From: a virus
Lineage: Duplodnaviria; Heunggongvirae; Uroviricota; Caudoviricetes
Length of the DNA: 44,068 nucleotides
Virus record (IMG/VR): IMGVR_UViG_2541047745_000010
Reading direction: 5' to 3' (one strand)
This document shows, piece by piece, positions 1,398-4,191 of this stretch. The position numbers were made by a program, and so were the translations under genes. The first letter of the stretch is position 1; each line of letters opens with the position of its first letter. The notes under the pieces were generated by a model. The model did no database searches. It was not told the DNA's origin and saw only the letters and a program-made list of their open reading frames with translations.

Positions 1398-1952
1398 TCA
1401 TTTATCTCCGACCGGAAACTTCTTATACAAAGTCGATACGCCAACATCATAAATGATCGCCACCTTCTGGCGAGGAACTCCTGATGCAATTAGTCGCCCG
1501 GCCTGCGCCCATTGTTCTGGTGTAAGTTTGGGACGACGTCCACCAATTCGTCCCTGTGCGCGAGCAGCTTCCAGTCCAGCTTTTGTTCGTTCAACAATCA
1601 GTTCTCGTTCCATTTCAGCCAGGGCCCCCATCACATGAAAGAAAAAACGCCCCATCGGTGTGCTGGTATCAATAGCATCCGTCAGGCTGCGAAAATTAAC
1701 GCCACGTTCGCGCAACTCCTCAACCAGAATGACCAGATGCCGCATACTACGCCCCAGCCGATCCAGCTTCCAGACAACCAGAGTGTCACCTGCCGATAAT
1801 GTCCTGAGCAGTTTTTTCAGTCCCGGCCTTTCGGACTTTGTACCGCTTATCTTGTCTTCAAAAATCAGCTCGCATCCTGCACAGTTCAACGCATTACGTT
1901 GTAGATCGGTATTCTGGTCATTTGTTGATACGCGTACATAGCCAATAAGCAT
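1398..1952 (-). CDS. pin: serine recombinase, DNA invertase of the Pin/Gin/Hin/Cin family
   Basis: 184 aa from ATG at 1952 with AGGGAG RBS; N-terminal YVRVSTxxQ catalytic-serine motif and C-terminal HTH; sits beside the invertible tail-fibre segment. Confidence 0.9.
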   Translation of the reverse strand: MLIGYVRVSTNDQNTDLQRNALNCAGCELIFEDKISGTKSERPGLKKLLRTLSAGDTLVVWKLDRLGRSMRHLVILVEELRERGVNFRSLTDAIDTSTPMGRFFFHVMGALAEMERELIVERTKAGLEAARAQGRIGGRRPKLTPEQWAQAGRLIASGVPRQKVAIIYDVGVSTLYKKFPVGDK

Positions 1953-2006
1953 GGTAGATCTCCCTGACAAAAGCAGGAATGATGCCATTTGCTCGTTATT
2001 TCTGCA

Positions 2007-2032
2007 TTTTCATAAACGTTGGTTTGGGAGAA
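2007..2032. repeat. left crossover site of the invertible segment (hix/gix-like, 12-2-12)
   Basis: ttttcataaacg TT ggtttgggagaa; right half is the exact reverse complement of ttctcccaaacc at 3823..3834. Confidence 0.7.
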
Positions 2033-2485
2033 GGCTCTGCTTTGCCTGTTGGCGTTCCGGTGCCGTGGCCTCTTGCCGTCCCGCCAGCGGGATGGCTCAA
2101 GTGTAATGGAGCTGCTTTCACGGCCTCACAATACCCCCAACTGGCGCTTGCCTATCCGTCGCTCAGACTGCCTGATTTGCGCGGGGAGTTTATCCGTGGC
2201 TGGGATGACGGGCGCGGGGTTGACTCAGGGCGTACGATACTGTCATTTCAGGAGGGGACTATCGTTTCCGGCTTTGATGACAATGATACAGGGGATATCA
2301 GTTCGCTGGGTTCTGCAAACTATGGATTCGGTGACAGTCTTACCTCCAATCAGTGGAACACCATAAATGGCAAAAAGTGGATATTTGATGCATCCAGCAA
2401 AGGTGCACAAAGATATGATTGGTGGGCTTACGTATCCGCGCGTCCCCGTAATATTGCATTTAATTATATCGTGAGAGCTGCATAA
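2021..2485 (+). CDS. silent alternative tail-fibre C-terminal segment (Sv'), promoterless in this orientation
   Basis: Frame opens at the crossover core (GLGEGSALPVG...); tail-collar-like motif PAGWLKCNGAAF...LPDLRGEFIRG; would fuse in frame to the fibre N-terminus after inversion. Confidence 0.65.
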   Translation, partial: GLGEGSALPVGVPVPWPLAVPPAGWLKCNGAAFTASQYPQLALAYPSLRLPDLRGEFIRGWDDGRGVDSGRTILSFQEGTIVSGFDDNDTGDISSLGSANYGFGDSLTSNQWNTINGKKWIFDASSKGAQRYDWWAYVSARPRNIAFNYIVRAA

Positions 2486-3087
2486 TGAATGACGCTGTAT
2501 TAAATAACGAATTTATTGCCACTCAAGCAGGAAATATCACCGTTTATAACTATGACGGTGAGACGCGGGAATATATTTCTGCATCAACTGAATATCTTTC
2601 TGTCGGCGTCGGCATCCCGGCATGTTCCTGTCTGGATGCACCAGGTACACATAAAGCTGGTTATGCAATCTGTCGCTCTGTAGATTTAAATTCATGGGAA
2701 TATGTGCCAGACCATCGCGGTGAAGTTGTCTATAGTACCGAAACGGGAGATACCAAAGAAATCACAGTTCCGGGTGATTACCCTGAAAATACAACCACTA
2801 TCGCCCCATTAACGCCATACGATAAATGGGATGGTGAGAAATGGATGACGGATACCGAGGTACAGCATAGCGCCGCACTAGACGCGGCAGAAGCACAGCG
2901 CCAGTCACTGATTAATGCAGCAATGGCTTCCATTAGTCTGATTCAGCTGAAATTACAGGCCGGACGGAAGTTGACGCAGGCAGAAACAACCCGACTTAAC
3001 GCCGTGCTGGATTACATTGACGCGGTGACGGCAACAGATACCAGCACCGCGCCGGATGTCATCTGGCCTGAACTGCCGGAGGAGTAG
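2485..3087 (+). CDS. tail fibre assembly protein (Tfa', partner of Sv')
   Basis: 200 aa; C-terminal DYIDAVTATDTSTAPDVIWPELP motif typical of Tfa chaperones; start overlaps Sv' stop. Confidence 0.8.
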   Translation: MNDAVLNNEFIATQAGNITVYNYDGETREYISASTEYLSVGVGIPACSCLDAPGTHKAGYAICRSVDLNSWEYVPDHRGEVVYSTETGDTKEITVPGDYPENTTTIAPLTPYDKWDGEKWMTDTEVQHSAALDAAEAQRQSLINAAMASISLIQLKLQAGRKLTQAETTRLNAVLDYIDAVTATDTSTAPDVIWPELPEE

Positions 3088-3502
3088 GCCATTCAATATC
3101 TGGTGCACTGGAAGTATCGACCAGCTCCAGTGCGTCCAGATAATCCAGCCACAAATTATATTGCGCCAGTTCCTCACCTTTCAGACGACCAATAGCCGCT
3201 TTACCAACCCATTGTCTACTGTTCATATAATCGTTGGCCTGATTAATCAATTGCTGCTTTTTAGTTTCGGCTGATGCAATTTGTTCTTCACGTGTTGGTG
3301 GAGGAATATCTGCCCATGCAGGCAGTCCATCTTCTCCAACACATCTGTATTTTCCTTCTGGTGGTGTGTCATAGAAATATTCCCTGAAAATTACTTCGTC
3401 TATATCAACACCTTTTTCTTCAGGCCATTCACCTTTTTCAACATAAAGAGACTGAAGTTCGTAAGGATATGCCAGGTTGTTTACGTACAGATATTTCATC
3501 AT
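3059..3502 (-). CDS. tail fibre assembly protein (Tfa, partner of the currently expressed fibre)
   Basis: 147 aa; C-terminal LDYLDALELVDTSSAPDIEWP motif; convergent with Tfa' and overlapping it at the 3' ends. Confidence 0.8.
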   Translation of the reverse strand: MMKYLYVNNLAYPYELQSLYVEKGEWPEEKGVDIDEVIFREYFYDTPPEGKYRCVGEDGLPAWADIPPPTREEQIASAETKKQQLINQANDYMNSRQWVGKAAIGRLKGEELAQYNLWLDYLDALELVDTSSAPDIEWPTPPAVQAR

Positions 3503-4191
3503 TACCAGCCCTTAGCGAAAAACGCACCACCTTCAAGACCATAATTGCAGTGAGCTATGAAGCCGGTAGTGCTCCAGTTGGTCGCCCCCCACATATTCCC
3601 GCCCCCGAAACCACCATCGCACACAATTACAATGCCCGGTGTCTGTGTAAATGGAATCGGGAATGAAACATTGGCGGATACAGGCCCGTGTTCACCAGGA
3701 AAACTAATTCGTCCCCACTGTTCAATTGAACCATCTGGCATTTTTCGCCAGCCTGAACCTGATGCATATGATGACATATCAGGTATCTGATTTTCCCCTG
3801 TTCCCACATTCCGTTTTGCCGCTTCTCCCAAACCAAGGTTTTCGAGAGCCGTTTTCACCGTGCCATCCGATTTGATATCACCAAACGGATTCTTGCGGCT
3901 CAGGTATTCAACAGCAAACCCCGATCCCAGCAATTCAACAAAACCGGGCAGATCACCATTATCAAGCACATCCCGTTGCGTTTTATCACTTACAAACTGG
4001 GCCAGAGCTGCAGCAATAAAGCTGGCCTGCCGAATAACCTTATTGACTTGCGCACTGGAGGCTTTCCCTGCTGTAAATCCAGATAAAAGCGCGGGCAACG
4101 CTTCCCATTCCTCCTGCGATATAACATTGGCTTTTCGATCCGTTGCAAACGCTTTAAAGTCATTTTTCGCCATCAGAGTAATACTCCCCAT
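3502..4191 (-). CDS. tail fibre protein (constant N-terminal part fused to the currently selected variable C-terminus)
   Basis: 229 aa; crossover site lies inside the gene at codons encoding [10 protein letters not shown]; follows the gpI-like baseplate gene. Confidence 0.8.
3823..3848. repeat. right crossover site of the invertible segment
   Basis: ttctcccaaacc AA ggttttcgagag; imperfect 12-2-12 palindrome inside the tail-fibre ORF. Confidence 0.7.

Follow-up and report, generated by a model that had tools for sequence, protein, structure and literature searches.

The DNA between positions 1,398 and 4,191 of the stretch analysed here (the window, 44,068 nucleotides) very probably constitutes a structurally complete e14-type Pin inversion cassette that swaps the tip of a tail fibre, a reading to which we assign a probability of about 0.88. 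The switch is real and ordinary. In essence it is the already known e14 Pin system: knowledge of Pin/pix goes back to 1985 (Plasterk and van de Putte, as cited in PMC4272514), measurements of its flipping in E. coli cultures have been published (PMC4272514), and inversion of the e14 segment with the same sites has been demonstrated experimentally (PMC4272514; PMC12529663). As a discovery the cassette thus carries little weight, since both Pin/pix and inversion targets adjacent to DUF2612 genes have already been published (PMC4272514, PMC9881135).

The 44-kb window is E. coli chromosome with a contractile-tailed prophage inserted between pphA and ryeA/sdsR. Matches to Pfam and PHROG families identified head, sheath, tape-measure, hub and spike genes and, judged by this gene content, the prophage with its virion gene set is apparently complete. 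The integrase ORF is short (278 aa), which we count against regarding the viability of the prophage as settled. The search for att sites gave only an unconvincing 11-nt direct repeat (positions 1083 and 43482), and a scan of positions 1000-4400 for promoters and terminators was uninformative, with 6 promoter-like sites against 5.5 expected. Directly upstream of the fibre gene lies a DUF2612/baseplate wedge gene (4173..4853, minus strand; Pfam DUF2612, 3.8e-47), and 'DUF2612 domain-containing protein' has been reported as an enriched neighbour of programmed-inversion targets in a systematic survey (PMC9881135).

In the mechanism that we propose, the cassette would close the tail-gene operon of this prophage as an e14-type Pin inversion unit. 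Transcription of the late operon on the minus strand would pass from the baseplate genes across the DUF2612 gene and enter the fibre gene in its constant 5' part (4173 to 3849). Pin would pair the two 26-bp pix sites, cut both at the central dinucleotide, and rotate and religate the DNA, so that the segment of ~1.8 kb is reversed. In the present orientation, the constant part is in frame with a lectin-like gp53/R-pyocin-type tip followed by a 147-aa Tfa protein; after inversion, it would be fused to a collar-type (T4 gp37-tip-like) domain followed by a 200-aa Tfa protein. The virions released by a lysogen population would then be of two kinds that differ in receptor specificity.

The sequence-only reading from which this analysis started had placed two imperfect 12-2-12 crossover sites at 2007..2032 and 3823..3848, and these proved to be the sole two matches in the window. 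Moreover, the alignment to pix that had been suggested as a check gave an exact result: both 26-bp sites are letter-for-letter identical to the published pixR (2007-2032) and pixL (3823-3848) of E. coli e14 (pixR sequence in Table 3 of PMC3241671). The pin-side site (core 2019-2020) reads TTTTCATAAACG TT GGTTTGGGAGAA on the plus strand, its reverse complement being pixR (TTCTCCCAAACC AA CGTTTATGAAAA). The site within the fibre gene (core 3835-3836), which encodes ...LENLGLGE, reads TTCTCCCAAACC AA GGTTTTCGAGAG on the plus strand and equals pixL. Together they form a 20-nt inverted repeat that is 95% complementary, with the copies 1,788 nt apart, and that ranks first among the inverted repeats of the region. 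The window contains exactly two copies of a 19-mer common to both sites, one on each strand, where 0.03 matches would be expected by chance; two copies were reached in 0 of 100 shuffles. The central dinucleotides, TT and AA on the plus strand, are identical once the sites are aligned as inverted repeats. The locus thus has the two inverted 26-bp imperfect 12-2-12 dyads with a matching core that characterize Din-family sites. Inversion at the core in silico kept the reading frame and produced the same junction peptide in both orientations, in agreement with the earlier claim that the frame is preserved.

The pin gene (1398..1952, minus strand; RefSeq name pinE) encodes a Din-family serine DNA invertase of 184 aa, which begins MLIGYVRVSTNDQ. 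The protein has the resolvase domain (Pfam Resolvase, 8.7e-52), the active-site serine near position 10 (catalytic Ser10, with a YVRVSTNDQ motif) and the C-terminal helix-turn-helix (HTH_7, 3.6e-14) of the small serine recombinases. Its assignment as a Pin-type invertase from the letters alone was correct, as it is 95.7% identical to K-12 PinE across all 184 aa, the 8 substitutions being conservative. The same protein accession, WP_000904983.1, is found in E. coli O111:H2 strain 12A. In the classical Hin/Gin/Cin/Pin systems, a Fis-dependent enhancer is located in cis within the 5' part of the invertase gene. The 5' 200 nt of pin (1753..1952, minus strand) show 98% nucleotide identity with the matching stretch of e14 pinE and presumably contain the Fis-dependent recombinational enhancer; by analogy, inversion would depend on Fis and this enhancer here as well.

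Within the ~1.8-kb segment lie the two convergent Tfa genes noticed previously, together with a second fibre C-terminus that carries a collar domain. This unfused collar-type C-terminus (1979..2485, plus strand; variable part 2033-2485) had been described as silent. It is indeed an alternative end of the fibre (Pfam Collar, 4.5e-15), but it is not start-less, as it has its own ATG at 1979. In the PDB its sequence matches a short tail fibre (9cuy, 2.2e-16) and the tip of T4 gp37 (2xgf, 1.5e-14), and it is 54% identical to e14 stfE. The start of the tfa gene for its putative chaperone (2485..3087, plus strand; 200 aa; Caudo_TAP, 1.4e-30) overlaps the stop codon of the 1979-2485 ORF (TAATG), and the product is 87% identical to e14 TfaE. 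The variable C-terminus of the current fibre (3502..3822, minus strand) is a lectin-like gp53/R-pyocin-type tip (Pfam gp53-like_C, 8.3e-07) with PDB sequence matches to 9zd7 (6e-06) and the R2 pyocin fibre (3e-04). In an AF2 model this C-terminal domain has pLDDT values of 82-90, and Foldseek matches it to the R1 and R2 pyocin fibres and to AP22 gp53. The putative chaperone for this tip is encoded by the second tfa gene (3059..3502, minus strand; 147 aa; Caudo_TAP, 3.2e-33), which is convergent with the first and overlaps it by 29 nt; its product shows 62% identity to e14 TfaP over the C-terminal 98 aa. The stop codon of each tip is therefore overlapped by its own Caudo_TAP gene inside the segment. 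Since both tips look like known receptor-binding fibre tips, inversion would be expected to change the host range.

The constant N-terminal part of the fibre (3849..4173, minus strand; ~108 aa) is the presumed baseplate anchor and is translationally coupled to the DUF2612 gene through a TGATG overlap. Residues 1-120 match the PHROG tail-fibre families phrog_1396 and phrog_11303, and the N-terminus is common to 474 homologues, in which it is joined to different C-termini. Two in-frame starts are available. The first ATG (4191) gives the 229 aa stated by the sequence-only reading, but the second ATG (4173), which overlaps the upstream stop codon, is the start in RefSeq and in all homologues, so that the current fibre has 223 aa. 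The predicted gain of a collar-like domain upon inversion held up, whereas the flipped length of about 275 aa became 267 aa when the inversion was made in silico (273 aa from the first ATG). Flipped versions found in nature are annotated as tail proteins of 267-281 aa. The 120 matches listed among the homologues were all shorter than 206 aa and mostly partials at contig ends, and fibre lengths were taken from annotated loci instead. These gave 209 aa for e14 StfP and 223, 232, 236, 264, 267 and 281 aa for relatives. A size of 209-281 aa is thus the norm for this cassette family, and the fibre cannot be called unusually short, as it had been. Cassette fibres are short beside those of Mu, P1 and P2. 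In the fibre, hardly anything separates the presumed baseplate anchor at the N-terminus from the lectin-like R-pyocin/AP22 gp53-type tip; residues 1-137 of the AF2 monomer model are of low confidence, and the fold of the anchor is unreadable from it.

The cassette family occurs in both orientations among complete E. coli genomes. In 5,426 such genomes, the constant region was found with a gp53-type tip in at least 168 and with a collar-type tip in at least 64. The O103:H2 strains 12009 and 2011C-4251 have flanks that are 100% identical, while the 1,877-bp segment between them is inverted at 99.9% identity, with breakpoints inside the two 26-bp sites. Other related strains that differ in orientation only are Z1323CEC0004 and 0002, CX15 and CX07 (same coordinates), CH423/458 and CH425, and JE86-ST02 and ST05. 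In the annotation of the O103:H2 lineage found in both orientations, pinE carries a frameshift; the inversion there may date from the past or have been carried out in trans. Many draft contigs stop 0-4 nt from the core dinucleotide, and their exact ends misfit simple de Bruijn-graph expectations. As a sign of mixed orientations such ends are only suggestive, because repeats common to several cassettes of one genome would break assemblies in the same way.

The exact prophage is present in only two of the complete E. coli genomes, those of AVS0790, assembly GCF_030038665.1, and of AVS0196, both assembled in the same orientation as the window and matching it at ~100%; a query flipped in silico retrieved no near-identical copy from this genome set. 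This could mean that the switch is frozen, with its structure complete and flipping lost because pin is expressed weakly or not at all, or because a substitution has inactivated the invertase, in which case only the 223-aa fibre would be made. The 8 substitutions relative to PinE and the frameshifted pinE genes of related lineages could be taken in the same sense. We nevertheless consider such a loss unlikely: a locked state cannot be inferred from as few as two genomes, Pin is full length and retains Ser10, its substitutions are conservative, the identical protein is present in another strain, and the sites are exact pix sites. In our view the cassette probably flips in this strain.

A different role is conceivable for the ORF on the pin side of the segment. 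The 1979..2485 ORF is a CDS in the PGAP annotation and opens, on the pin side of the crossover site, with an ATG and an 18-aa leader, MMPFARYFCIFINVGLGE; leader and ATG are conserved in 9 of 9 loci examined, e14 among them. The StfE2 protein of e14 has been reported to lower T2 adsorption, through a mechanism that was derived partly from docking models (PMC12529663). By analogy with what was proposed for StfE2, the lysogen might produce the unfused tip behind this hydrophobic leader as a free-standing receptor-blocking domain, which seems to us quite improbable. If it were true, one flip would alter the host range of the virion along with the resistance profile of the lysogen, and would do so in a prophage that is fully functional and no fossil. 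It is still harder to believe that the key output of the switch lies in the lysogen and not in the virion, so that the leader with its unfused tip would be a receptor-blocking or exclusion factor like StfE2 and inversion would toggle phage defence. The conserved leader, the PGAP annotation and the reported effect of StfE2 on T2 adsorption all agree with such an output. However, the leader shares sequence with the pix site and the region upstream of pin, and its conservation need not mean coding; the tips are merely ~40-54% identical to those of e14; and the published StfE2 mechanism leans in part on docking (PMC12529663). Furthermore, the virion gene set is full here, unlike in e14, and a role in host range suffices.

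Lastly, an origin of the inverted repeat by chance, or as a mere coding motif common to fibre genes without any recombination, can be dismissed: the site does encode the conserved fibre motif LENLGLGE, and homology alone could give some repeat, but the chance expectation is 0.03, the pin-side copy is pixR and is situated upstream of the homologous coding region, an intact invertase adjoins it, and natural inversions break exactly in these sites.

For annotation, the tip-swapping cassette implies that the 168-aa 'phage tail protein' and the 223-aa 'gp53-like' protein represent the alternative ends of a single switchable fibre gene, and that an assembly captures a momentary orientation and no fixed property. 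Prediction of host range, or the building of tailocins or phages from this prophage, must weigh both tips. The locus could also offer a convenient system, with an intact phage, for testing the recent claim of a role for e14-type inversions in phage defence.

The nearest known system is the P segment with PinE (stfP-tfaP-tfaE-stfE-pinE) of e14, a defective prophage of E. coli K-12. Besides the two identical 26-bp sites and the closely similar invertase (95.7%) and TfaE (87%), the two share the gene order, the convergent tfa genes with a 29-nt overlap, the short-fibre design (StfP, 209 aa) and the 18-aa leader on the pin side. They differ in the constant N-terminal part of the fibre, which is related in its last ~25 aa only; the fibre aligns with StfP only from residue 92 onwards, at 39.5% identity. 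They also differ in the upstream baseplate gene (DUF2612 here, DUF2313 (ymfQ) in e14), in the diverged tips (collar type, 54% identity; gp53 type, ~40%), and in the host element, an apparently complete prophage at pphA-ryeA as opposed to the decayed e14 at icd. By sequence comparison, therefore, the cassette does not appear to be an orthologue of the e14 P segment itself: pin and the sites are common to both, the fibre anchor is not.

Inversion of the Mu G and P1 C segments changes host range, and the Mu and P1 fibres are much longer than the present one, which has almost no shaft between anchor and tip. The Gin and Cin systems of these segments likewise combine a Din-family invertase and 26-bp 12-2-12 sites with a constant 5' fibre part and two alternative 3' parts, each with an assembly gene. 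These fibre-switch segments measure 3 and 4.2 kb (PMC12529663), in contrast to the ~1.8 kb found here, and gix of Mu has another site sequence with a GA core (PMC3241671). Fibre C-termini are also shuffled by the Min multiple-inversion system of plasmid p15B and by the three-site prophage shufflons of EPEC, the sites of which belong to the Din family and are of the TTCCCCCAAACC AA CGTTT type, very near pixR (PMC3241671). Those systems have at least three sites and more than two tips, whereas there are exactly two sites in the window. Finally, the current tip resembles the R1/R2 pyocin fibres and AP22 gp53 in sequence and predicted fold, and the alternative tip resembles the collar region of T4 gp37 and the 9cuy short tail fibre; the likeness is confined to the receptor-binding domains and the identity is low (15-23% in the fold matches).

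The locus at 1398-4191 belongs to a cassette family that clearly flips. It holds an invertase gene (pin, 1398-1952, - strand; Pfam Resolvase and HTH_7), an alternative fibre end (1979-2485, +; Pfam Collar), two tfa genes (2485-3087, +, and 3059-3502, -; both Pfam Caudo_TAP) and the expressed fibre gene (3502-4191, -; Pfam gp53-like_C), and the gene upstream of the fibre encodes a DUF2612 protein (Pfam). With the e14 element of K-12 MG1655 as the reference for identity, the invertase and PinE agree at 95.7% over the full 184 aa; all eight substitutions are conservative and leave the catalytic-serine motif intact. 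These assignments bear out the sequence-only reading, which had proposed a Pin-type invertase, two convergent Tfa genes and a tail-collar-like alternative domain.

The two 26-bp crossover sites were located where that reading had put them. The pin-side site (2007-2032) reads TTTTCATAAACG TT GGTTTGGGAGAA and the fibre-side site (3823-3848), inside the fibre gene, reads TTCTCCCAAACC AA GGTTTTCGAGAG. This pair ranks first among the inverted repeats of the region, with arms of 20 nt that are 95% complementary and lie 1,788 nt apart. A 19-nt pattern consisting of the shared half and the core is present at exactly two places in the 44 kb, one on each strand, against a chance expectation of 0.03, and two occurrences were seen in 0 of 100 shuffles. 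Both sites are letter-for-letter those of e14, and alignment to the published pixL (TTCTCCCAAACC AA GGTTTTCGAGAG) and pixR (TTCTCCCAAACC AA CGTTTATGAAAA) showed that they equal these sites (PMC3241671, Table 3).

The exact prophage was found in only two genomes (AVS0790 and AVS0196), both assembled in the same orientation. The opposite arrangement was found in prophages that share the constant part, the DUF2612 gene and the pix sites with this one. The O55:H7 CB9615 locus runs from DUF2612 through a 281-aa fusion of constant part and collar tip, tfa, a convergent tfa and an unfused gp53-type end to pin; CREC-544 has a simpler form, in which the fused fibre is 267 aa long and only one tfa is present. 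When the CB9615 locus was used as query both in its native form and flipped in silico, mirror-image match lists were obtained: the native form was matched over 100% by O103:H2 12009 and O45:H2 FWSEC0003, and the flipped form was matched over 100%, with equal bit score, by nine O103:H2-related genomes. Direct alignment of 12009 with 2011C-4251 showed flanks that are 100% identical and a 1,877-bp segment that is inverted at 99.9% identity, with the alignment boundaries overlapping within the 26-bp sites. Sibling strains also differ in orientation only (Z1323CEC0004 versus 0002, CH423/458 versus CH425, and JE86-ST02 versus ST05), and for CX15 and CX07 orientation alone differs while coordinates and chromosome length are the same. 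A census of the tip junctions with junction-specific 200-nt queries found the constant part joined to the gp53-type tip in at least 168, and to the collar-type tip in at least 64, of 5,426 complete E. coli genomes. Experiments on e14 have demonstrated inversion at these same sites, by sequencing and PCR (PMC4272514) and by qPCR with over-expression of PinE or PinQ (PMC12529663). The proposal of an invertible switch thus holds for the cassette family, with both orientations present in relatives and the 12009/2011C-4251 boundaries within the sites.

It should be noted that pinE is annotated as frameshifted in the O103:H2 lineage (1545-2098 in locus L017 and 3823-4376 in locus L018), yet the segment occurs there in both orientations. 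Either another invertase acted in trans to produce the inversion, or the inversion is older than the pinE frameshift. Furthermore, all ten contigs read from draft assemblies (NCBI and Logan; L007-L016) stop within 0-4 nt of the fibre-side site's central TT (window 3830-3840). Partial proteins predominate in the homologue list, and those ending with a contig measure 111-113 aa (clusters P0043, P0050 and P0053, with 173, 263 and 93 members). This pattern, suggestive but ambiguous, would fit mixed orientations or cassettes common to several prophages, but does not account for the exact end points.

The reading frame is kept when the segment is exchanged in silico at the central dinucleotides, and both inversion products have a common 26-aa junction stretch and diverge beyond it, in agreement with the frame preservation claimed earlier. 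The fibre gene has two in-frame ATGs. The first, at 4191, has AGGAG merely 1 nt upstream; the second, at 4173, shares a TGATG with the stop codon of the DUF2612 gene. Because RefSeq and all homologues start at 4173, the fibre measures 223 aa now and 267 aa when inverted, and the lengths of 229 and about 275 aa proposed before, which were counted from the first ATG, are corrected accordingly. The description of this fibre as unusually short was not upheld. Fibre length is 209 aa for e14 StfP, 223 aa for this window and O111:H2 12A, 232 aa for 2011C-4251, 236 aa for DEC5A, 264 aa for phage vB_EcoM-606R2, 267 aa for CREC-544 and 281 aa for CB9615 and O103:H2 12009, and the profile of one PHROG family that matches the fibre N-terminus is just 231 long. 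Shortness is therefore a trait of the cassette family, not a peculiarity of the locus.

The small size follows from the architecture: about 95 N-terminal residues, a junction motif of about 25 aa with the crossover site, and a compact tip, with a shaft essentially absent between anchor and tip. A monomer structure model, weak over the N-terminal half of the fibre, predicts with low confidence that the N-terminal part is helical, and models the current tip confidently as a beta domain (pLDDT 82-90). The fold of this tip matches the R1/R2 pyocin fibre tips, AP22 gp53 and a snail lectin, and its sequence matches the R2 pyocin fibre and 'short tail fiber gp92'. For the alternative tip, the matches are to the collar region of the T4 gp37 tip and to a short tail fibre of solved structure. 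Both tips are therefore plausible receptor-binding domains.

In e14 the gene order (fibre, tfa, convergent tfa, fibre end, pin) and the 29-nt overlap of the convergent tfa genes are as in the window. TfaE is 87% identical to its window counterpart, stfE 54% to the collar-type end, TfaP 62% to the small Tfa over the C-terminal part, and StfP about 40% to the expressed tip. However, the constant N-terminal fibre part is not common to the two, and the baseplate context is the DUF2313 gene ymfQ in e14 but DUF2612 in the window. A recombination module and tips are thus common to phages with different baseplates, joined at a conserved junction motif. The locus is the already known Pin/pix system itself, carried here by an apparently intact prophage whose fibre anchor differs. 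In RefSeq it is already annotated as pinE plus tail genes, and 'DUF2612 domain-containing protein', 'tail fiber assembly protein' and 'tail fiber protein' are among the most enriched annotations in a domain-wide survey of programmed inversions (PMC9881135). In other strains the crossover site links this constant N-terminus to additional C-termini that are unrelated (protein clusters P0006, P0020 and P0099; junction-query matches H277 and H287), for example a '...LGLGDGSGRLIQCQVF...' type in Shigella and a longer lambda-Stf-like version. The crossover site doubles as an evolutionary module-exchange point.

The alternative fibre C-terminus, previously called silent, is indeed present, but lies in an ORF that has an ATG of its own, on the pin side of the site. 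Ahead of the pin-side site comes a hydrophobic leader of 18 aa (MMPFARYFCIFINVGLGE) that carries a double ATG (window 1979-2032, +). Leader and ATG are conserved in all nine loci examined, e14 included (also L002-L006 and L017-L019), so that the unfused tip always lies in an open ORF (132-185 aa). Leader and unfused tip might have a role like that of the corresponding e14 chimera StfE2, which a 2025 paper claims to block T2 adsorption (PMC12529663). We assign this view a low probability, since the leader sequence overlaps both the pix site and the region upstream of pin, such that its conservation is no proof of coding, and the window tips have diverged from those of e14.

As for the invertible switch, in the Din-type family both sites are bound by dimers of Pin, and the synaptic complex is assembled by an enhancer that lies in the 5' part of the invertase gene and has Fis bound to it. 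All four strands are then cleaved at the central 2 bp, and one half turns through 180 degrees before the ends are rejoined. Over its first 200 nt, pin has 98% identity to e14, and a putative enhancer is therefore placed within pin. Pin is probably active in this strain. In each orientation the late operon and the constant part would be followed by one tip and by the Tfa chaperone that is translationally coupled to it, and inversion would be expected to change the host range.

The AVS0790 and AVS0196 E. coli chromosomes match the window region at 100%. The prophage fills 937-43462, inserted between pphA and the ryeA/sdsR sRNA pair (43463-43607), with chromosomal yebW and pphA at the left end of the window (1-936; pphA ends at 936). 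It combines a rac-like early region, with RecE (38151-40784), RecT (40720-41586), RalA sRNA (41836-42014), sok (29178-29352), DicF (37088-37139) and YdaT (35059-35481), with a contractile-tail late region that encodes sheath, tape measure, baseplate hub, membrane-puncturing spike (a PF18352 spike family protein lies at 6402-7154), gp25-like wedge, Baseplate_J and the DUF2612 wedge. Head genes for portal, major capsid and small terminase are also present. The switch lies at the extreme left prophage end, downstream of the baseplate genes. An integrase-family ORF by the right junction (42499-43335, +) has only 278 aa, short for a phage tyrosine integrase, and may be truncated or mis-started. At the two prophage ends the sole direct repeat found is one of 11 nt (1083 and 43482). 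Relatives of the same tail module occupy another site, adjoining yfhH.
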